In this document: positions 4,117 to 28,426 of the stretch, in pieces
Layout of the letters: each line of letters begins with the position of its first letter
How positions within the stretch are numbered: position 1 is the stretch's first letter
NCBI RefSeq assembly: GCF_001462395.1
Contig: NZ_LNTB01000001.1
Location: forward strand, 1,290,001 to 1,322,000
Source of the DNA: Pyrodictium occultum
Lineage (GTDB): Archaea > Thermoproteota > Thermoprotei_A > Sulfolobales > Pyrodictiaceae
Reading direction: 5' to 3'
Length of the DNA: 32,000 nt
Notes under the pieces: generated by a model
Databases searched by the model: none
The model's input: the letters and a program-made list of their open reading frames with translations, nothing else
What the model was told of the DNA's origin: nothing
Made by a program: the position numbers and the translations under genes

Positions 4117-5352
4117 GTGTTCTCCGCCGTGTCCGCGGTTGAGAGGCTTATGAGGCCCGTTATCCAGGGCCTCCGGGGGGAGGCAGGCTTCGCCTATATA
4201 GCCAAGGCGCGTGAGCTCGCCAGCCGCGGCGTCAAGGTTATAAGCTTCGGGGTTGGGCAGCCCGACATCCCCACATTCGACCATATAATCGAGGAGGCTA
4301 AGAGGGCTCTGGATGAGAGGTTCACCGGGTACACGGAGACCGTGGGCATACCCGAGCTCCGGGAGGCCATAGCGGACTATCTCAACTCGAGGTACCAGGC
4401 CGAGGTTGGCCCGGACGAGGTGCTCGTCACCACGGGCGCTAAGACCGCGATATTCCTCGCCATAGCCGCGTACCTCGGCCCCGGGGACGAGGTGGTGGTG
4501 CCGGAGCCTAGCTACCCCGCCTACCCCGAGGCCGCCCGCGCCATGGGCGCGAGGCCGGTCTTTGTGCCGCTCCGCTGGAAGGGCCAGGAGAGGGGCTTCG
4601 AGCTGGACGTGGAGGCCATAGAGGAGGCTGTGACGAGCCGCACCAAGATGATAGTGCTCACGAACCCGCATAACCCGACGGGCGAGGTCTTCCCCCCAGA
4701 GCAGGTTGAGGCGGTGCTCGAGATAGCTAGGAGGCATAACCTGGTAGTCCTGGCTGACGAGATATACGACAACTTCGTCTACGAGGGAGGCTTCAGGAGC
4801 ATACTAACCTACAGCGGCTGGAAGGACAACGTGCTATACGTGAACGGGCACTCCAAGACCTTCTCCATGACGGGGTGGCGGCTCGGCTACCTGGCAGCGG
4901 CCAGGCCGGTGATAGAGAGGCTGAAGAGGCTGGCGGTGAACGTGTACAGCTGCGCTCCGAGCATAAGCCAGCGCGCCGGCGTCGCAGCGCTCCGCGGCCC
5001 CTGGGAGCCGGTCAGGAGGATGGTCGAGGAGTTCCGCCGCCGCCGCGACGCGGTGGTTGAGGAGCTGCGCCGCGTCCCCGGCTTCGAGGTCCCGGTGCCC
5101 CGTGGAGCGTTCTACATCTTCCCCAGGGTTGCCAAGGTGCTCGAGGAGATAGGCATGAGCACCGAGGAGTTCGTCGACCACCTCCTCTACAGCCGCGGGG
5201 TTGTGACGCTGCCGGGCACAGTGTTCCCCGAGAAGGCGGGCGAGGGCTTCATAAGGCTGAGCTACGCGGTCAGCGTGGAGAAGATCCGGGAGGGCGTGGG
5301 CAGGATAAGGGAGGAGGTCGAGAAGCTCCTGGCCGAGAGGGGCCGCCGCTAG
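4117..5352 (+). CDS. Class-I PLP-dependent aminotransferase (aspartate aminotransferase-like)
   Basis: Motifs: GVGQPDIPT near the N-terminus, NPHNPTG, and NGHSKTFSMTGWRLGY (PLP-lysine motif). The start is uncertain between GTG 4117 and ATG 4150. Confidence 0.9.
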   Translation: MFSAVSAVERLMRPVIQGLRGEAGFAYIAKARELASRGVKVISFGVGQPDIPTFDHIIEEAKRALDERFTGYTETVGIPELREAIADYLNSRYQAEVGPDEVLVTTGAKTAIFLAIAAYLGPGDEVVVPEPSYPAYPEAARAMGARPVFVPLRWKGQERGFELDVEAIEEAVTSRTKMIVLTNPHNPTGEVFPPEQVEAVLEIARRHNLVVLADEIYDNFVYEGGFRSILTYSGWKDNVLYVNGHSKTFSMTGWRLGYLAAARPVIERLKRLAVNVYSCAPSISQRAGVAALRGPWEPVRRMVEEFRRRRDAVVEELRRVPGFEVPVPRGAFYIFPRVAKVLEEIGMSTEEFVDHLLYSRGVVTLPGTVFPEKAGEGFIRLSYAVSVEKIREGVGRIREEVEKLLAERGRR

Positions 5353-5372
5353 CCCCCCTTCTCCCGGGAAGG

Positions 5373-6110
5373 GTGGCCCCAGGCGTGGACCGGGGCCTCC
5401 TCGAGAGGCTCCTCCGCCTAAACCCCGCCGCGCTCGAGGAGGAGTACAAGGCCAGGGAGATCTTCCAGGGGGAGCGGGTGGAGCCCCCCTTCGCCCTGCG
5501 GCTCGACGGGGTTGGCTGGGGGAGGAGGCTCCAGGGCTTCGGGTGGCCTAGGGACGAGAGGGTTCACCGGGCCCTGGCCAGGGCGGTGGCGGAGGCGCTC
5601 CGGCTCCTCGGCGGCTGCTGCGCCCTGGTGGTGAGCGATGAGGCGAGCCTAGTGTTCACCGGGGAGCCGCCCTACTCTGGCAGGGTGGAGAAGCTCGTGA
5701 GCATCTCCTCCGGAGTGGTCTCTGCAGGGGTTTCGCTCAGCCTGGGGAGGCCCCTCTTCCTCGACGCTAGGGTGGTGAAGCTCTATTCCGGCCGCGACGC
5801 GGCCCGCTACCTGCTCCACCGGGCCCGGGTGGGGCTCAACAACTACGTCTCCAGCATCTACCACGCGGCGTCGCCCAGAGGGGCCGGCCGCACGCCGGGG
5901 CTGCGGGAGATGATAGGCGAGCTACGCCGCAGGGGCCGCGACCCCCTGGAGGAGCCCGCCTGGAGGCTCGTCGGCAGCTGCCTGGTCTACGCCCCGTCCC
6001 GGAGGCTCGTCGAGCCGCCCGGCGTGGTGGCGGAGAGGAGGAGGCTGCTGATACTAGACGGCGGGCTGGAGGCCTGCCTGGAGGCCCTCGGGGCCGGCGA
6101 GGAGCTATAG
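5373..6110 (+). CDS. Thg1-like protein (tRNA-His guanylyltransferase family, archaeal TLP)
   Basis: The series ALRLDGVGW..., VVSDEASLVF, RVEKLVSISSGVVSAG, LDARVV, YLLHRARVGLNNYV parallels the Thg1 motifs RLDGRxF, SDExSxVF, SK, FDGRVV, WRQxDxHINN. The start codon is GTG. Confidence 0.75.
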   Translation: MAPGVDRGLLERLLRLNPAALEEEYKAREIFQGERVEPPFALRLDGVGWGRRLQGFGWPRDERVHRALARAVAEALRLLGGCCALVVSDEASLVFTGEPPYSGRVEKLVSISSGVVSAGVSLSLGRPLFLDARVVKLYSGRDAARYLLHRARVGLNNYVSSIYHAASPRGAGRTPGLREMIGELRRRGRDPLEEPAWRLVGSCLVYAPSRRLVEPPGVVAERRRLLILDGGLEACLEALGAGEEL

Positions 6111-6155
6111 CCCCGGGGGCTCCTCGGCTGGACCCCTCGGGGGAGGTGCCTGCTC

Positions 6156-7016
6156 TTGGCCCTGCGGGGCGTGGAGCCCGTCGTGAGAAAGCCCTGCCGC
6201 GTCGTGGCTATTGTGAGCGGTGGCCCGGACAGCTTCGGCTACATGGTCCAGTGGCTCGCCAGGGGCTGCAGCGTGCACGCGCTCAGCTTCAACTACGGGC
6301 AGAAGGGGAGCAAGGAGCTCGAGGTGGCTAAGCGCCTCATAGAGGAGGCGAACCGGCTAGCCGAGTCCAGGAAGGGCTGGGGCAGGGTGGTGGAGCACAG
6401 GATAGTGGATATGAGCTTCATGGCCGAGCTGTGGAGGGGGAGCCAGCTCACGGACGAGAGCATTGCGGTGGAGGAGAGGTACCAGCCCACGGTGGTGGTG
6501 CCCATAAGGAACGTGGTGATGCTCAGCATAGCGAGCGCCTACGCCTACAGCCTGGCCCAGCAGCACCCGGGCGAGAGCGTCTACGTGGTCTACGGCGCCC
6601 ACTACAACGACATAGCGCCGAGGAGCGACACCTGGGAGCCCCTCTACCCCGACTGCAGCCCCGAGTGCCTGGAGGCACTGCAGACAGCGCTCCGCATCTG
6701 CCACTTCCGGGGAGAGAGGAGGCTCGAGATCTGGAGCCCAAGCCGCGAGGGCCTAACCAAGGCCGAGGGCCTCAAGAGGACCTACAGCCTCGTAGGCGAC
6801 CTGATCTACGAGACCTGGAGCTGCTACCTCTCCGGCCGCTACCACTGCGGCCGCTGCGAGAGCTGCAGGAGCAGGCACAGCGCGTTCCTCGAGGCTGGGC
6901 TGCCGGACTGCACCCTCTACGAGACCCCGCCCGGCGACCCCAGCGAGTTCGTACGGGTCGGCGACGCCTACGTCCACAGGAGCTGCAGGAGGCTAGCCGA
7001 GCCCCGGAGCGCCTAG
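6156..7016 (+). CDS. queC: 7-cyano-7-deazaguanine synthase (PP-loop ATPase)
   Basis: PP-loop [10 protein letters not shown] followed by LSFNYGQK. C-terminal Cys cluster [18 protein letters not shown] (QueC zinc motif). TTG start with GGGAGGTG at 6141-6148. Confidence 0.85.
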
Positions 7017-7081
7017 ACCACCGGCGCCGGGACCCCTGGCCGGCGGGCTGGGGGTAGGACTTATTGGGATGTACCCGTGGT

Positions 7082-20103: not shown

Positions 20104-20889
20104 TTGGCCCCTGTTAAGAGGAGCGCGGTGCTCGACGTAGCCGCCCCCTGCGACCGGGTTATACGGCTGCTATCCTCCCGCGACCCCTCCTCCTTCCTGG
20201 CGGGCGCGGCCAGGCTCAGCGGCCAGGGAGAGAAGCGCGGCGTGAAGGTGCTTACCTTCGCCTCCGCCAGGTACGGCAGCCTGCGGGTGGAGGCCGAGGA
20301 GAGGGTCGAGGCTGACCGCCTGGAGCTGCTCCTCCGGGGCGACCTCCACGGCTCCGTGCGGGTTGTCGGGGTCAGCAAGGGCAGCGGGTGCCGCCTCTAC
20401 CTCGAGGCTGAGGGGGAGGGTAAGCTCGTCGAGGAGTACGGCGGTGACGCCCTCTCGCGCGTAATAAACCGTATAATGGTCACGCTGGTCAGCGTGTTCC
20501 CCGCCACTCTGCAGCCCCGGGTCTCCGGGGGCAGGCTCGGGGACTACTTCATCGAGCTCCTGGAGCTCATAAACCTCGCCCAGGGGGGTAGCGCGAGGAT
20601 CCAGGGCAGGCTACGCAGTATAGCAGTGGACCTCAGCCGCGGGGTCGTGATAAACTCGGAGGGGCTGGGCGAGGAGGAGGCTAGCACGATAGCGAGGGCC
20701 CTCTCCGACGCCTACTCTAGGCTTGTTGAGGCCCTGGGTATTCTCGGTGATGGCGAGGTTTCACGCCTCGTAGTATCGGGTGACAAAAGCCTTATAGTGG
20801 CCAATGTAGCGGGTAAAATATCTGTGGCCACCGTGCTGCAGCAGGGTGGCGGAGAGGAGGCCGGCGCCTCCGGCTCCGGGGCGTCGTAG
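20104..20889 (+). CDS. Hypothetical: N-terminal domain paralogous to the 15886 N-terminus (possibly SRPBCC-like) + C-terminal Roadblock/LC7-like domain
   Basis: The C-terminus, IAVDLSRGVVINSEGLGEEEASTIARALSDAYSRLVEALGILGDGEVSRLVVSGDKSLIVANVAGKISVATVL, fits the Roadblock pattern. The N-terminus, VLDVAAPCDRVIRLL...LRVEAEERVEADRLELLLRGDLHGSVRVVGVS, parallels the 15886 product. TTG start. Confidence 0.7.
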   Translation: MAPVKRSAVLDVAAPCDRVIRLLSSRDPSSFLAGAARLSGQGEKRGVKVLTFASARYGSLRVEAEERVEADRLELLLRGDLHGSVRVVGVSKGSGCRLYLEAEGEGKLVEEYGGDALSRVINRIMVTLVSVFPATLQPRVSGGRLGDYFIELLELINLAQGGSARIQGRLRSIAVDLSRGVVINSEGLGEEEASTIARALSDAYSRLVEALGILGDGEVSRLVVSGDKSLIVANVAGKISVATVLQQGGGEEAGASGSGAS

Positions 20890-20895
20890 AGGCTG

Positions 20896-21723
20896 ATGCC
20901 CCAGTCTCCCAGCCGCCCTTGGAGGCTGATGAGCTTGTCAAAGCCGTTTGTTATGAGGCTGCTGCGTAGGCGCCCGCTCAGCTACACTGTCCTAGTCCTC
21001 TTCATACTAGACCGCTCCCTGAGCATGATGGAGCCCAAGACCTATGACTACCGCGGCAAGTGGTTCCACCTAGTGGACCTGGTTGAGGCTCTCCTACGCA
21101 GGCTGGGCCGCAGCAGGATGGCCCCCGCCTTCCGGGTCGGCTTCGTCTGGTTCAGCGACGACGTCGAGGTGGTTGAGTGGAACGGCGAGGTCTACTTCCC
21201 CGTCGCCCCGAGGAACGTGGCGCTCGACGTGTTCCGTAAGAGTGCGGAGAGGAACCGGCCCTACGGCATGACCGCCATGGCTGACGCGCTGGAGGCGGCG
21301 GCGTCCGTGGTCGAGCGGTATGTGGACCAGTTGACGCTGCCGCCGGAGAAGTATGGGACTCTCTTCCTCTTCACCGACGGCAGGGAGACCAGGAGAACGG
21401 TGGACGACGTGGTGGTGGCAGCGGAGAAGATAACCATGGAGCTGGCGGAGAGGATGAAGAAGCTCAACGAGAGGAACCGTATAGGCCTCGCAACCATAGC
21501 CCTCGGCCAGGACGCCGACAGGGAGACGCTGAGGGATATAGCGAGCTTCCTGCGTGAGGCGCAGCGCCGTGTCCTCGAGGACCGGGGGCTCCTGGACCTG
21601 GTGGACCCGCCCTACCACGAGAAGATGTTCATAGACGCGCCCGCCGATGACCGTATAACGCGCGAGTGGGAGGAGGCTGTGAGGAGGTTCGTGGAGAGGC
21701 TGAGCGAGACGGCTACGGTCTAG
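20896..21723 (+). CDS. von Willebrand factor type A (vWA) domain protein with intact MIDAS
   Basis: MIDAS elements are LDRSLSM (DxSxS), GMTAMADAL (Thr) and LFLFTDGRE (Asp). There is no signal peptide. It starts 6 nt after the upstream gene. Confidence 0.85.
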   Translation: MPQSPSRPWRLMSLSKPFVMRLLRRRPLSYTVLVLFILDRSLSMMEPKTYDYRGKWFHLVDLVEALLRRLGRSRMAPAFRVGFVWFSDDVEVVEWNGEVYFPVAPRNVALDVFRKSAERNRPYGMTAMADALEAAASVVERYVDQLTLPPEKYGTLFLFTDGRETRRTVDDVVVAAEKITMELAERMKKLNERNRIGLATIALGQDADRETLRDIASFLREAQRRVLEDRGLLDLVDPPYHEKMFIDAPADDRITREWEEAVRRFVERLSETATV

Positions 21724-21733
21724 GCCTTCTAGG

Positions 21734-22789
21734 GTGTCAGCCCCCATGGCTAGGCTCAGCCTGGTTTTCCACAGCGGCTTCGTGGTGTCCACTGATAGCG
21801 ATGAGTGGGAGCTGCTCGATAGCGGCGGCGAGGCCGACATATACCGGGCTAGGCTCCGGGGCGGGCAGAGCTACATAGTCAAGCTGTATACGCCCAAGTA
21901 CACGGGGCTCGCCCGGCCGGTGGAGCGCATCGCTGAGATGCTTAGGAGGCTCACTAGGCTCCGCAGGAGGTGTGGGGGGTCGATACCCGAGAGCCTCTGG
22001 GCCCGCGGCCTCCCCGTAGCCGTGGGAGCCCTCGAGGACAGGGCCGTGCTAGTGTTCCGGGAGGTGGAGGACTTCACTACGGTATCCGAGCTGGTGAACA
22101 ACCCGGAGCTGCTGGGGGAGTACCTCGAGAGGCACAGCCTGGAGGAGAGGAGGCGGTTCGCCCGCGAGGTGCTGCGGGGCCTCGCCTGCCTAGACGCGGC
22201 CGACATAGTCCATGTCGACGCTACGACGCCCAACGCGGCCTACGGCAGGGTCGGGGAGACTAGAGGGGTATTCCTCTACGACTACGAGACGGCGGGCATT
22301 ATAGGCTCCGAGGACTACCCCCTCACCGTTCTCCCCGCCCGCGACGCCAACCTCCTCCCCGTGGAGGTGCTGGCCGAGGCCGGGGTTGAGATACAGCCCC
22401 CGGACCCGGGCGAGCTGCCCATACCCCTCCAGCCCTCCCGGCTCCCCAGGCCCATCCTCTCCTGGATAGCCTGGACCCCGACCTGGTACGGCCTGCAGCT
22501 GGTGGCGCTGGTCTACAGCGGCCTCAGTCCCTTCCACGGCCTCCCCGTGCTGAGCAGCAGCTACTGGCTAGAGATAGTGGAGGCCGAGGCCGCGCAGGGC
22601 TACCCGGGCGGCTGGCCCCCGCTGAGCATGGTGGACCAGGGCTACCTGGACCAGACCGAGTACCTGGAGCTGAGCAAGCTGTGGAGAAGCCTTGGCGAGG
22701 ACGTGGTGGAGGCGATGTACCACGTCTTCATCGTCGACCCGGGCGAGCGGCGGGGCATGCCGAGCTACCCACTCTCGTCAATATTCTAG
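21734..22789 (+). CDS. Eukaryotic-like Ser/Thr protein kinase-like protein
   Basis: Gly-rich loop LLDSGGEADIY. IVKLY carries the catalytic Lys. Catalytic loop IVHVDATTPNAAY (HxDxxxxN). LYDYETAG sits in the DFG position. YGLQLVALVYSGLSPF resembles subdomain IX. It starts 10 nt after the vWA gene; alternative start ATG 21746. Confidence 0.8.
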   Translation: MSAPMARLSLVFHSGFVVSTDSDEWELLDSGGEADIYRARLRGGQSYIVKLYTPKYTGLARPVERIAEMLRRLTRLRRRCGGSIPESLWARGLPVAVGALEDRAVLVFREVEDFTTVSELVNNPELLGEYLERHSLEERRRFAREVLRGLACLDAADIVHVDATTPNAAYGRVGETRGVFLYDYETAGIIGSEDYPLTVLPARDANLLPVEVLAEAGVEIQPPDPGELPIPLQPSRLPRPILSWIAWTPTWYGLQLVALVYSGLSPFHGLPVLSSSYWLEIVEAEAAQGYPGGWPPLSMVDQGYLDQTEYLELSKLWRSLGEDVVEAMYHVFIVDPGERRGMPSYPLSSIF

Positions 22790-22946: not shown

Positions 22947-24107
22947 TTGAACCACCGCTCAGCAGCCCTCGCCCTGGCCGCCCTCGCCGCCTCGGCTGCC
23001 GCCCTCGCCCTGCTAGCAGGCTTCGCCACCACCCAGAGCCCGCTGAGCAGCTTCTACGCGGTGGGCTGCGCGCAGGCGCCCAACGAGCCCATAAGCCTCC
23101 AGCAGCTCGGCAGCATAACCATAGCCCCAGCCTCCGGGGCCGAGGGCTCTCTCGAGGAGCCCGAGTGGCTCAAGATAACAAGGCACAGTGATGTCGACTA
23201 TGTGAAGCTGGAGCTGAGCCTGGAGAACGCGGATCAGCTGCGCCGGCTCCTAGACTACCTAAGCATAGAGGTTAGGGAGGCATACCAGGTCTTCGAGGGC
23301 AACGTGACGACGGATCAGCCGTACTGTAAGAGGGCTCCTCAGGATGAGTGGCCGCACCTCTCCTGGGCCATAGACGGCCACGGGAAGGATATAGCCGAGA
23401 AGCTTAAGCACGTCCTGCGGGGCCACGTGCAGAAGGGAATAGACGTCGATGCCGCGGTGCAGGACATACTCAGCAGAGTCTCCTACGCCACCATAACCCT
23501 AGCCTACCGCAACTACACCTACAACGGCACCCTATACCTGGCCCCGGGCAACGGCACAGCAATCAACGAGACCCTCCACGAGATAGCCCGCCACCTGGTC
23601 CGGGGAAGCGGGATAGTGGTCCACACGCCCTACGCTGACGGTAGAGGCTTCCACCACGTAGTGATTGAGGCCGACACGCAGCCCCCAACACTGTTCTTCG
23701 ACTCCGCGGATTACGGCATAATAGTGGGCAACGGTACGAGCGGCCACAGGCCCGCGTCCGCTCTCAACTTCACCCTGCGGCTAGACTTCTACGATAGCTC
23801 CGGCAACTGGCTGTTCGCCATATGGTGGGACACGATCTACTACAGCTATGCCGGCGGCCGCTTTAACAACTGGGCCTCGTACGAGTATCTCAGCGTCGCC
23901 CGGCCGGTCCTCAAGCTGGGCAACGTTAGGGCCGTGCTCAGCCTGGGTAAGCCCAGCGCAGTGGTCGCTGTGGACGGGGACTCCTGGCTCTACGATGGAG
24001 GCCGGGCGGCGGTCCTGGGCGCCCGGGTGTACTACGAGGCTAGGGAGGGCGTGCTCTTCGACAGCGTGCCCCTGGTGATCAACGCCAGGGTGGTTGAGAC
24101 GGGCTAG
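22947..24107 (+). CDS. Large secreted paralog of the CanA/TasA-like filament-subunit candidate, with a sequon-rich insertion
   Basis: It shares the N-terminus AASAAALALLAGFATTQSPLSSFYAVG.AQAPNEP and the C-terminal blocks (LENADQL..LDYL, GKPSAV, YYEAREGVLFDSVPLVIN) with the 26060 product. Seven N-x-S/T sequons. TTG start. Confidence 0.75.
   Translation: MNHRSAALALAALAASAAALALLAGFATTQSPLSSFYAVGCAQAPNEPISLQQLGSITIAPASGAEGSLEEPEWLKITRHSDVDYVKLELSLENADQLRRLLDYLSIEVREAYQVFEGNVTTDQPYCKRAPQDEWPHLSWAIDGHGKDIAEKLKHVLRGHVQKGIDVDAAVQDILSRVSYATITLAYRNYTYNGTLYLAPGNGTAINETLHEIARHLVRGSGIVVHTPYADGRGFHHVVIEADTQPPTLFFDSADYGIIVGNGTSGHRPASALNFTLRLDFYDSSGNWLFAIWWDTIYYSYAGGRFNNWASYEYLSVARPVLKLGNVRAVLSLGKPSAVVAVDGDSWLYDGGRAAVLGARVYYEAREGVLFDSVPLVINARVVETG
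22982..23089 (+). repeat. Copy A of a 108-nt near-identical dispersed repeat (5' coding segment of the paralogs)
   Basis: By my alignment it matches 26090-26197 with 3 mismatches (ctcgCcgcc vs ctcgTcgcc; gggCTgc vs gggTGgc). Confidence 0.9.
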
Positions 24108-24119
24108 CCTCCTGGGCGC

Positions 24120-24614
24120 CTAGCCTCTCTCCACCCCCGCGTCCAGGGTCTCCGTCCTCGCCGGCCTGAGAATGCATCCACGCAGAAGCTCCGGGAGCTT
24201 CTCGAGGACCACCCGCGCCCCGGGGGTTAGGGGCAGCTGGAGGGCCTCCCGGTAGGGGAAGAACCTGGCATCCGCGGCGTCGCTCCCGCCCCGGGGCTCG
24301 CCGCCCCGGTACCTCATCAGCACGTCCATTATGACGTAGTGCTCGGGGCCCACGGGGCCCATGGCCAGCAGCTCGTGGATATGCACCACCCCCAGGGGCT
24401 CTGCGTCCACCCCGGTCTCCTCCATGAGCTCCCTCCGGGCCGCCTCCAGCACGGTCTCCCCGGGCTCCAGGTGGCCCCCGGGGAAGCTCCAGAGCCCAGG
24501 GAAGGGCGGGTAGCGGCGCTTCACGAGGAGCACCCTGAGCCCCGCCCCCTGCCCGAGGGCCACTATCGCGCCCACGCCCACCACTGGGCCGTGGAGCCCA
24601 CCCCTCCTGGACAA
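24120..24614 (-). CDS. Nudix hydrolase
   Basis: Nudix box [24 protein letters not shown] (GX5EX7REUXEEXGU). 164 aa. Confidence 0.9.
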
Positions 24615-24696
24615 GCCCGGCCGGCACCCCAGGGGTGTGTAAACCGGGGGCCCAGGGGCTCTTAGACCGTGGCCCCTCGACGCCCCTGGGGCGCCA

Positions 24697-24936
24697 CTAC
24701 TCCTCGAGGGGCTCGGCCCCCAGCACCTCCCTGGCCACCTCGTCCACCTCCCCGCCGCGGGCCTCCCTGAACCTCCTCGAGAGCAGCTCCTGGGCCTGCC
24801 TGTAGGCCCTCTCCAGCCTCTCGAAGGGTATGTATATCAGCTCCCCGCCGCCCGTCTCCAGGAAGACCACGAAGCGCCTACGGGGATAGTCGACCGCCAC
24901 GTGGAGGCACGGCGGCTCCTCGCACTCGTAGCTCAT
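24697..24936 (-). CDS. Small hypothetical protein (79 aa)
   Basis: ATG start about 37-42 nt from a shared TATAAA. Protein-like composition. I recognise no family. Confidence 0.5.
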
Positions 24937-24972
24937 CCGGCCTCCCGGGGGGCTCCCCCGGGGCCCCGGCGC

Positions 24973-24978
24973 TATAAA
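24973..24978. promoter_or_regulatory. Bidirectional TATA box (TATAAA / TTTATA) between divergent genes
   Basis: It is the only AT-rich hexamer in the 62-nt gap between 24936 (minus start) and 24999 (plus start). Confidence 0.5.
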
Positions 24979-24998
24979 CCGGGGGCCCGGGGGCGCCG

Positions 24999-25922
24999 GT
25001 GTGGGGGTGCCATTTGCCCGTCCTGCGGGTCAGGGCTGCGGGCCTAGAGCTGGAGCACCCGGTTATGAATGCAAGCGGCATCCTGGGCTCCAGGCCTGAG
25101 GCGCTGGAGAGGCTCGCGCGCGCCGGCTCCGCGGCGCTGGTCACGAAGTCCTTCACCCGCGAGCCGCGGAGCGGCTACCCGACGCCGATAGCCGTGCCCA
25201 TCCCCCAGGGCCTGCTCAACGCCGTGGGGCTCTCGAACCCGGGGCTCGAGGCGCTCCCAGGGCTCCTGGAGAGGATCCGGGGGCTGGGCAAGCCGGTGAT
25301 CGTCAGCATAGCTGGCTCCACCCCGGAGGAGTTCGCCGAGATAGCGGCCGCTGCCGAGGAGGCGGGCGCGGCGGCGGTGGAGCTGAACCTCAGCTGCCCC
25401 CACGCGAGGGGAAGGGGCCTCGAGATAGGCATGGACCCCGTCGCGGTCAGGGAGGTGGCCGGCGCCGCCGCCTCCACGGTGACCATACCGGTGCTCGCCA
25501 AGCTCGGCGTGGTGGATAGGCTCGTGGAGGTTGCCGGCAAGGCGCTCGAGGCAGGGGCGAGGGGCCTGGTGCTCATAAACACCATACGGGCCATGGCTAT
25601 CGACGTCTACGCCATGAAGCCCGTCCTGGGTCACGGCGTGGGCGGGCTCTCGGGCCCCGCCATCCACCCCGTGGCGGTGCGCGCGGTCTACGAGGTCTAC
25701 CGGGAGTACAGGACCGACATAATAGGGGTGGGCGGGGTCGAGGACTGGCGCACAGCGGCGGAGATGATCCTAGCCGGCGCCCGGGCGGTACAGGTTGGCA
25801 CCGCGGTAATAACCAGAGGCGAGACAGTCATAAGCGAGATAGTACAAGGGCTCCAGAAGTACCTCCAGGAAGTAGGCGCCACGAGCATCCAAGACGTTGT
25901 GGGAGCAGCCCACAAAAACTAG
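24999..25922 (+). CDS. pyrD: Dihydroorotate dehydrogenase catalytic subunit (class 1)
   Basis: Motifs LELEHPVMNASGILG, VTKSFT, NAVGLSNPG, IVSIAG, ELNLSCPH, GGLSGPAIHP and GVGGV. The start is uncertain (GTG 24999 or TTG 25014). Confidence 0.9.
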   Translation: MWGCHLPVLRVRAAGLELEHPVMNASGILGSRPEALERLARAGSAALVTKSFTREPRSGYPTPIAVPIPQGLLNAVGLSNPGLEALPGLLERIRGLGKPVIVSIAGSTPEEFAEIAAAAEEAGAAAVELNLSCPHARGRGLEIGMDPVAVREVAGAAASTVTIPVLAKLGVVDRLVEVAGKALEAGARGLVLINTIRAMAIDVYAMKPVLGHGVGGLSGPAIHPVAVRAVYEVYREYRTDIIGVGGVEDWRTAAEMILAGARAVQVGTAVITRGETVISEIVQGLQKYLQEVGATSIQDVVGAAHKN

Positions 25923-26000
25923 CACAGCAAAAAGAAGAGCAAGCATAACAGGCATATTAACACGCGTAGCATATTACCAGAATGGGTCATGATTAGATAG

Positions 26001-26009
26001 TTTTTATTT
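26001..26009 (+). promoter_or_regulatory. Strong TATA box in a ~130-nt AT-rich promoter region for the small CanA/TasA-like gene
   Basis: TTTTTATTT lies within the conspicuously AT-rich stretch 25923-26035. GGTGAGG Shine-Dalgarno at 26050-26056 precedes ATG 26060. Confidence 0.65.
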
Positions 26010-26059
26010 CCCCGAAGTCGCCCTCATTTACATGACCCGTGAAGGGTCTGGTGAGGCGT

Positions 26060-26569
26060 ATGAGGTACACGAGCCTGGCTCTAGCCGGCCTCGTCGCCTC
26101 GGCTGCCGCCCTCGCCCTGCTAGCAGGCTTCGCCACCACCCAGAGCCCGCTGAGCAGCTTCTACGCGGTGGGTGGCGCGCAGGCGCCCAACGAGCCCGTC
26201 ACCATAACCAGCAACCTCAGCGGCATATCGCCCGCCGCCGGCGCGCAGGGCGATGCCGACATAGGCACTGTGACGGTGAAGGCCGGCAGCAACGTGAACG
26301 TTGTGAAGATAAGGGCCACCCTCGCCAACGCCGAGCAGCTGAAGAAGTACTTCGACTACCTGGAGATAACCATAGCCAACGACAACGGCGAGGCTAAGGC
26401 CATGGTGAGCCTGGAGAAGCCCAGCGCCGTCATAGTGCTCGACCAGAACGACATAGGCGGTGACAACCAGGCGACGCTGAGCTTCCACGCCTACTACGAG
26501 GTCAAGGAGGGCATGCTGTTCGACAGCATGCCGGTGATCTTCAACTTCCAGGTGCTCAGCACCAGCTAA
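26060..26569 (+). CDS. Small secreted CanA/TasA-like filament-subunit candidate (169 aa precursor)
   Basis: The signal/anchor MRYTSLALAGLVASAAALALLAGFATTQSPLSSFYAVG is followed by a beta-rich body ending YYEVKEGMLFDSMPVIFNFQVLSTS. One sequon (NLS). Strong promoter and SD. The track start GTG 26039 is also possible. Confidence 0.85.
   Translation: MRYTSLALAGLVASAAALALLAGFATTQSPLSSFYAVGGAQAPNEPVTITSNLSGISPAAGAQGDADIGTVTVKAGSNVNVVKIRATLANAEQLKKYFDYLEITIANDNGEAKAMVSLEKPSAVIVLDQNDIGGDNQATLSFHAYYEVKEGMLFDSMPVIFNFQVLSTS
26090..26197 (+). repeat. Copy B of the 108-nt near-identical dispersed repeat
   Basis: Matches 22982-23089 (see copy A). Confidence 0.9.
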
Positions 26570-28159: not shown

Positions 28160-28426
28160 ATGGAGGTGGGTGCTATGGCTAGCGAGTACCTCTCCAAGCT
28201 GAAGGACCTGATAAAGCCCAAGGCCCAGGAGAAGGGGATAAAGGTGATGGTTGTTGGCTCGACCATGAAGCTCGTCAAGGACGGCAACACCGTGATGAAC
28301 ATCGCCGACAAGGGCGAGATAGTTGAGCTGAGCTTCAAGGGCAAGAAGTACACCTACGACAAGTGGTACACCAAGCCCGAGCACCTCGCGGCGACGATAA
28401 CCAGGACCCTCGACGTCCAGCTCTAG
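28160..28426 (+). CDS. Small Lys-rich hypothetical protein (83-88 aa), probably highly expressed
   Basis: The translation is clean and non-GC-biased (MASEYLSKLKDLIKPKAQEKGIKVMVVGSTMKLVKDGNTVMNIADKGEIVELSFKGKKYTYDKWYTKPEHL...). It has a strong TATA and SD. I recognise no family. Confidence 0.65.
   Translation: MEVGAMASEYLSKLKDLIKPKAQEKGIKVMVVGSTMKLVKDGNTVMNIADKGEIVELSFKGKKYTYDKWYTKPEHLAATITRTLDVQL

Follow-up and report, generated by a model that had tools for sequence, protein, structure and literature searches.

Two paralogous cannula-family proteins of Pyrodictium occultum, one of them with a large insertion at the site of the first outward-facing loop of CanA

Cannulae are unusually heat-stable nanotubes that assemble themselves without chaperones, and they matter both to archaeal cell biology and to biomaterials. 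Three subunits, CanX and CanA of Pyrodictium abyssi and Hyper2 of a Hyperthermus sp., polymerise by lending an N-terminal donor strand to the axial neighbour, where it occupies the groove formed by strands B and K, and three Ca2+ sites resolved by electron cryo-microscopy (cryo-EM) strengthen the cannula interfaces (Nat Commun 2025; PMC12518558). The same paper records cannulae in P. occultum, notes that chaperone genes and dedicated peptidase genes are absent from the surroundings of the cannula genes, and describes several paralogs with "substantial domain insertions" that were poorly predicted and to which no role had been assigned. In the present work these systems were compared with two genes, CF15_06945 and CF15_06965, which lie in a stretch of 32,000 nucleotides (nt) of Pyrodictium occultum PL-19. 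This stretch is called the window below, and all coordinates are window positions unless another accession is named.

Both genes had been singled out before. Utturkar et al. (2016; PMC4767911) named them as likely cannula genes, and Supplementary Table 1 of the preprint by Sleutel et al. (bioRxiv 10.1101/2024.12.30.630787), of which the Nat Commun paper is the later version, lists their products among the cannula-like proteins retrieved with CanA by Foldseek. The entries are A0A0V8RWX1, with 169 amino acids (aa), a GFA-TT cleavage site at 25/26 and one sequon, and A0A0V8RWL5, with 386 aa, GFA-TT at 27/28 and seven sequons, the cleavage sites being predicted by SignalP 5.0. The assignment of these two genes, and the mechanism that goes with it, is already known in the literature. 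What is added here is a model of the insertion carried by the larger protein, together with the confinement of this insertion to the family, its conserved sequons, the homogenisation of the donor-strand region and a positional ortholog in P. abyssi.

Family membership and the donor strand

The 386-aa product of CF15_06945 (the large form) and the 169-aa product of CF15_06965 (the small protein) were confirmed as paralogs, with a similarity far above chance. BLASTP aligned them in two collinear blocks, residues 28-109 of the large form with 26-105 of the small protein at 49% identity (E 6e-21), and residues 325-385 with 110-168 at 43% identity (E 1e-13), so that the large form corresponds to the small protein plus an insertion of about 215 residues (aa ~110-324). 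An earlier sequence-only reading of this DNA, made from the raw letters without tools, had proposed both open reading frames, a set of blocks shared between them and a hydrophobic N-terminus in each, and it was right on these points. The frames are real at the positions that it gave, and all the motifs that it quoted (LLAGFATTQSPLSSFYAVG.AQAPNEP, L(E/A)NA(D/E)QL..DYL, (G/E)KPSAV and YYE..EG.LFDS.P...N) occur in both proteins and nowhere else in a six-frame translation of the window. The sole hydrophobic stretch of each protein is N-terminal, since Kyte-Doolittle values over 19 residues exceed 1.6 at residues 3-11 only in both. A membrane-integral location was rejected, because this cleavable segment is the only hydrophobic one in either protein.

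Searches against PDB sequences retrieved cannula subunits with both proteins. The small protein matched CanX (9H8B) with E 4e-58 over residues 1-169 vs 1-174, CanA (7UII, 9DLO and 9HDI) with E 7e-41 and Hyper2 (9BAB) with E 4e-15. For the large form the corresponding values were 1e-37, 9e-22 and 5e-16, and its matches were split into two to three stretches per target on either side of the insertion. Nothing significant beyond CanX, CanA and Hyper2 was found for either protein in this search. A profile built from 15 small forms gave the same picture against PDB (CanX 3e-92, CanA 3e-66, Hyper2 3e-20), with no other match. Pfam and NCBIfam scans of both proteins returned no match, and those libraries hold no curated model for the cannula family. 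The family is narrow: the small protein has 17 relatives in a collection of 5.8 billion clusters, and, among 1.84 billion representative proteins, a profile of the large form found 34 with E<=1e-3. All named matches belong to Pyrodictium (P. occultum and P. abyssi), and the remainder come from metagenome-type sources.

The fold leads to the same assignment. An AlphaFold2 model of the large form reached a predicted local distance difference test score (pLDDT) of 55.5 with an alignment of 6 sequences, and of 78.4, with a predicted template modelling score of 0.74, after three large-form homologs had been added (9 sequences). In a Foldseek search of PDB with the latter model, the top five matches were 7UII, 9H8B, 9HDI, 9DLO and 9BAB (E 5e-10 to 9e-7, probability 1.0), whose target-normalised template modelling (TM) scores to the model were 0.58-0.71, and no other match exceeded a probability of 0.2. 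For the small protein, the 60% identity to 9H8B over its full length points to the same jelly-roll fold. Both genes, then, encode Pyrodictiaceae cannula-family proteins, and the suggestion of the sequence-only reading that they are CanA-like secreted filament subunits is borne out by the PDB sequence matches and by the fold of the large form.

The N-terminal region of the two proteins carries the elements needed for this kind of polymerisation. Both contain the GFA-TT motif, and our own cleavage-motif and sequon counts match the published table; mature CanA begins at TTQSPL, which is homologous to the mature start of the small protein. The conserved segment that follows, TTQSPLSSFYAVG(G/C)AQAPNEP, has its counterpart, by alignment, in strand A of CanX and CanA, which cryo-EM has defined as their donor strand (PMC12518558), and the donor strand of the small protein also aligns to that of Hyper2. 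In both proteins the SFYAVG(G/C)AQAP strand fits the published donor-strand rule, which asks for F/Y at P1, for small residues at P2-P5 and for a central Gly that is conserved (PMC12518558). This Gly is G38 in the small protein and G40 in the large form, in both cases mature G13, and it is aligned with G13 of Hyper2, whose mutation to Ala severely compromised assembly (PMC12518558). Eleven positions here (T26, T27, S29, P30, L31, S33, F34, A36, G38, E45 and P46) are invariant in 15 small-form family members. The two donor strands differ at 2 of 22 residues, the large form having Cys for Gly at mature position 14 and Ile for Val at position 22. In the large-form model residues 1-46, which comprise the signal peptide and the donor strand, are disordered (pLDDT <50), as expected for a monomer in which strand A is free and not self-complemented. 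The alignment to strand A of CanX and CanA, with the central Gly kept, upholds the earlier identification of this segment as the donor strand; cannula subunits and donor strand had both been correctly recognised from the raw sequence. As a side observation, the only Cys residues of the large form are C41, beside the donor-strand Gly, and C127, and neither is conserved in the P. occultum paralog CF15_07065.

At the nucleotide level this region is much more alike in the two genes than their remainder. A tract of 103 nt that spans the signal-peptide core, the cleavage site and the donor strand (Table 1) is identical at 101/103 positions, vs only 38/103 for the 103 nt that follow. Within it the same codon is used at 32 of the 33 identical residues, vs 35 of 49 elsewhere (Fisher p = 0.003), and the N-terminal ~55 residues of CF15_07065 are the same apart from two changes. 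The simplest reading is that gene conversion keeps a signal-peptide/donor-strand cassette uniform among the paralogs, as these figures suggest. Chaperone-usher pili order their subunits through differences between donor strands (PMC12518558); a uniform cassette argues instead for a promiscuous fit of all paralogs to one groove.

The inserted domain of the large form

The insertion of the large form lies between the core strand with DYLSIEV and the strand with RAVLSL, in the same loop as the first outward-facing loop of CanA, whose loops project from the tube's outer surface (PMC12518558; PMC12326000). In the AlphaFold2 model, residues 150-324 have a pLDDT mostly of 85-95, and unusually long strands, aa 102-121 and 306-332, stand on either side of the inserted domain. 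These two strands suggest a beta-stalk that, if they pair, would hold the insertion off the core. Outside the insertion, the large form retains its signal peptide and donor strand, the strands of the core and, at the C-terminus, the groove strand YYEAREGVLFDSVPLVINARV.

The inserted domain appears to be private to the family. Taken alone it gave no match in Pfam or NCBIfam and none at E<=10 among PDB sequences, and among the 1.84 billion representative proteins it was found only within Can proteins; the sole match to the insertion without a core, P0047, is a fragmentary P0007-like protein. Foldseek searches of PDB and BFVD gave no credible structural partner for it. START/Bet v 1-like matches recurred there at a probability <0.2 and a TM score of ~0.2, viral proteins matched at a TM score of ~0.1, and none of these matches was interpreted.

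All 7/7 NxS/T sequons of the large form fall in the insertion, and two NxT sequons, at aa 189-191 (N189) and 274-276 (N274), are conserved in nearly all large forms. This conservation is consistent with a glycosylated and exposed domain, and the insertion is probably glycosylated. Full-length homologs of the large form occur in P. occultum (48% identity), in P. abyssi (36%) and in metagenomes, and homologs at 25-58% identity keep the insertion, the two sequons and the core motifs. The P. abyssi homolog of 389 aa (P0004, AP028907.1) is a positional ortholog, as it lies downstream of the same three genes as CF15_06945 does. Taken together, the full-length homologs, this ortholog, the conserved sequons and the homogenised donor-strand tract indicate, as far as sequence comparison goes, that the large form is under selection.

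Upstream regions and genomic setting

The features of the locus are collected in Table 1. Upstream of the small gene lies the stretch of 130 nt that is poorest in guanine and cytosine (GC) in the whole window (25911-26040; 40.8% vs 67.5% overall). A TATA-like TTTTTATTT occurs at 26001-26009 and at no other place in the window, and a Shine-Dalgarno-like GGTGA stands at 26050-26054, 5-9 nt 5' of the ATG. The sequence-only reading had credited this gene with the strongest promoter of the window; the AT-rich region, the TATA-like box and the Shine-Dalgarno-like motif are indeed there, and the ranking itself is something that one may infer from them. RefSeq (WP_168371328.1, 176 aa) puts the start of this gene at GTG 26039, and GenBank and UniProt use ATG 26060 (169 aa). 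The 169-aa form is the better call, because it matches the MRYT N-terminus of CanX and of most homologs and has GGTGA 5-9 nt upstream.

The region upstream of the large gene has 70% GC, and inspection of this sequence by eye revealed no AT-rich element. Its TTG is the only start codon past the upstream stop that retains the signal peptide. A scan for sigma-70 promoters and intrinsic terminators gave no result, its models not being applicable to an archaeon.

Table 1. Features of the two cannula-family genes and of the gene trio upstream, in window positions
Feature	Position	Strand	Details
Roadblock-like/VWA/kinase-like trio	20104-22789	+	tightly packed, with gaps of 6 and 10 nt; 5' of CF15_06945
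Large cannula-like gene	22947..24107	+	CF15_06945 / WP_058371139.1 / UniProt A0A0V8RWL5; 100% identity to database entry
Large precursor			386 aa, TTG start; mature 359 aa, ~39.6 kDa; seven NxS/T sequons
Signal peptide, large	22947..23027	+	aa 1-27, predicted cleavage GFA|TT
Homogenised tract, copy 1	22988..23090	+	signal-peptide core, cleavage site, donor strand
Predicted donor strand (strand A), large	23028..23093	+	TTQSPLSSFYAVGCAQAPNEPI
Insertion, ~215 aa (aa 110-324)	23274..23918	+	position from alignments to the small protein and PDB matches
Putative AT-rich promoter and leader of small gene	25923..26059	+	44.5% GC, 137 nt; function proposed from its sequence
Small cannula subunit gene	26060..26569	+	CF15_06965 / KSW12458.1 / UniProt A0A0V8RWX1; 100% identity to database entry
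Small precursor			169 aa, ATG start; mature 144 aa, ~15.2 kDa, isoelectric point 4.4; one NxS/T sequon (N52)
Signal peptide, small	26060..26134	+	aa 1-25, MRYTSLALAGLVASAAALALLAGFA, predicted cleavage GFA|TT
Homogenised tract, copy 2	26095..26197	+	partner of 22988-23090
Predicted donor strand (strand A), small	26135..26200	+	TTQSPLSSFYAVGGAQAPNEPV; conserved Gly at mature position 13

The three genes upstream of the large form encode proteins of 261 aa, with a weak Roadblock/LC7 match, of 275 aa, with a VWA domain, and of 351 aa, with no Pfam match. The last of them contains the motif HVDATTPN, and its kinase-like alignments, to DAPK1, stay below the threshold (E 0.2-0.5). In P. abyssi AV2 the same trio is found in the same order (4297-7022 of the AP028907.1 locus), with identities of 73%, 88% and 80%, whereas the large form is only 36% identical to its ortholog; the divergence of the large form is thus far quicker than that of the genes next to it. 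Around the two genes, the neighbours comprise the weak Roadblock/LC7-like, VWA and kinase-like genes, NUDIX, dihydroorotate dehydrogenase (PyrD), PGI/SIS and hydantoinase B. A Pfam scan of the neighbouring genes showed no chaperone, usher, signal peptidase I or other TasA-like gene among them, and the absence of an adjacent chaperone, usher or signal peptidase is consistent with chaperone-free assembly.

Some further observations concern the surroundings and the wider family. Small open reading frames with no Pfam match stand among the flanking housekeeping genes at 24697-24936 (-), 79 aa, and at 28160-28426 (+), 88 aa. The P. abyssi AV2 locus (AP028907.1, 644500-665669) holds three cannula-like genes in 21 kb (176, 389 and 230 aa), together with genes for a PP2C-like phosphatase and for a 1260-aa PKD-domain protein, and it probably corresponds to one of the two clusters of cannula genes known from the literature. 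Other family members, encoded outside the window, have different architectures. In P0034, P0035 and P0049 a Thr-rich linker joins the Can core to a Cys-rich domain at the C-terminus, P0045 has a different C-terminal extension, and P0036 an acidic, Cys-containing N-terminal extension. P0034 has 414 aa, which is also the length listed for A0A0V8RWQ8 of P. occultum.

Assembly, rival readings and known systems

By analogy with the homologs for which assembly has been shown in the literature, it is very probable that both proteins are cannula-family subunits that are exported by Sec, cut at GFA|TT and polymerised by donor-strand complementation with the help of Ca2+. The precursor would be exported and cleaved after GFA, leaving a mature jelly-roll subunit whose N-terminal strand A (TTQSPLSSFYAVG.AQAPNEP) is free. 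This strand would be taken up by the B/K groove of the axially adjacent subunit, and Ca2+ would bridge the axial and radial interfaces, to give a hollow tube, about 25 nm in width, that forms without chaperones. Within this scheme the product of CF15_06965 is most likely a major or abundant tube subunit, as it is of CanX size, is 60% identical to CanX and is preceded by the promoter-like region with the highest AT content in the window. The TTG start and the lack of a visible promoter would agree with a low abundance of the CF15_06945 product. That the latter is a minor subunit of the same lattice, with its extra domain displayed on the outside of the tube, is the reading that we prefer, at odds slightly below even. 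We propose further, with more doubt than belief, that the insertion-bearing proteins may form a distinct class of lattice-compatible minor subunits, in which a donor cassette kept by conversion is combined with a beta-stalked, glycosylated adaptor domain confined to the family. If so, a domain held off the tube surface could serve to anchor tubes to cells, to branch or bundle them or to bind the AbpX fibrils that have been seen wound around cannulae, and the fast divergence of the large form (36% vs 73-88%) would reflect selection on an exposed surface.

Several points weigh against this scheme. P. occultum has a second paralog of CanX size, CF15_01655, which is 66% identical to CF15_06965 and is an equal candidate for the major subunit. 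The P. occultum proteins are known here from their genes, whereas the assembly of CanX was seen ex vivo, and what is said of promoters and expression for both genes likewise derives from the DNA sequence. As regards the Ca2+ sites, conservation is established for the family's invariant acidic columns as such, which both proteins retain (E45, D128, E147 and D155 in the small, E47, D343, E364 and D372 in the large). Finally, two-dimensional classification of ex vivo cannulae of P. abyssi revealed no extra outward domains (PMC12518558), so that insertion-bearing paralogs can be at most sub-stoichiometric there.

This last observation bears on the view that the 386-aa protein is a specialised terminal or nucleating subunit, either a cap or a cell-proximal anchor in the pseudo-periplasm, whose donor strand would serve only for docking at one tube end, or else belongs to a separate filament. 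Such a role would account for cannulae that show no outward densities, it agrees with the low copy number that the TTG start and the missing promoter suggest, and it would suit a distinct conserved subfamily with a positional ortholog of its own. An insertion of ~215 aa could also clash in a tightly packed lattice. Nevertheless, the insertion occupies a loop that faces outward in CanA, and the protein retains both its donor strand and its C-terminal groove strand, whereas in a pure cap the loss of one of the two would be expected; we regard a terminal or separate role as rather unlikely, though as the strongest of the rivals. Much less probable still is that the gene is a decaying or silent paralog. 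The TTG start, the 70% GC upstream and the apparent lack of an AT-rich element there might be read in this way. TTG starts, however, occur in Thermoproteota, and transcription may read through from the upstream Roadblock-like/VWA/kinase-like operon. The reading frame is moreover intact across 386 codons, the insertion is confidently modelled, and the homologs at 25-58% identity maintain it along with both sequons and the core motifs. The idea that the large copy is a pseudogene was rejected on the ground that full-length homologs are conserved.

The sequence-only reading had also called the proteins TasA-like, and they might accordingly be subunits of the TasA type or of archaeal bundling pili (AbpA/AbpX) that form thin biofilm fibres. 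Donor-strand complementation is common to all these systems, and published HHsearch comparisons link CanX-like proteins to AbpA, the Sulfolobus thread subunit and Peptidase_M73 with 80-95% probability at <20% identity (PMC12518558). In our searches, a Pfam scan of both proteins found no match to PF12389 (Peptidase_M73) at E<=10; neither single sequences nor the family profile matched TasA, AbpA (7UEG) or AbpX among PDB sequences at E<=10, nor did the profile match the thread subunit; and TasA, AbpA, AbpX and the thread subunit are absent from the top 50 Foldseek matches of the large-form model. The small protein is, on the contrary, 60% identical to CanX, a subunit of ex vivo cannulae, no signal peptidase I gene is adjacent, and P. 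occultum has a separate putative archaeal bundling pilus gene, WP_058370724.1 (PMC12518558). The CanA half of the earlier label stood and the TasA half did not, save for the remote link in the literature. Membership in the TasA or bundling-pilus families was rejected as effectively refuted by these sequence tests, and the probability that we leave to it is negligible.

Returning to the cannula family, the small protein finds its nearest counterpart in CanX of P. abyssi AV2 (WP_338251948.1; 9H8B), to which it is 60% identical over the full length (169 vs 174 aa). Both have a signal peptide, GFA|TT, the donor strand, AAGAQG, the KPSAV strand and a YYE.KEGMLFDS.PVI.NFQVLS C-terminus, but the small protein has no equivalent of the glycosylated sequon at Asn51 of CanX (NYT), its own single sequon being precursor N52 (NLS). 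CanA of P. abyssi TAG11 (7UII, 9DLO, 9HDI), from the same family, has two short loop insertions of ~10 and ~30 aa, whereas the large form has one folded domain of ~215 aa at the site of the first outward loop and the small protein has neither. The architecture of the large form, with the insertion at the same site, recurs at nearly full coverage in the 422-aa CF15_07065 of P. occultum (A0A0V8RWP2; 48% identity), which differs from the 386-aa protein by additional segments inside the insertion, and in the 389-aa P0004 of P. abyssi (36%). More distant is Hyper2, from a metagenome-assembled genome of Hyperthermus sp. (9BAB/9BAC): it has the same fold, donor-strand complementation with Ca2+, and a Gly13 that aligns with mature G13 of our proteins, but a much lower identity (E ~1e-15) and tubes of different helical symmetry. 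TasA (Peptidase_M73, PF12389), AbpA/AbpX and the chaperone-usher pilins are likewise secreted beta-sandwich or jelly-roll subunits with an N-terminal donor strand, yet they form thin fibres, whereas a cannula is hollow and wide, with Ca2+ to stabilise the tube. The two P. occultum proteins resemble TasA in donor-strand polymerisation, and they are members of the cannula family rather than of the TasA family proper.

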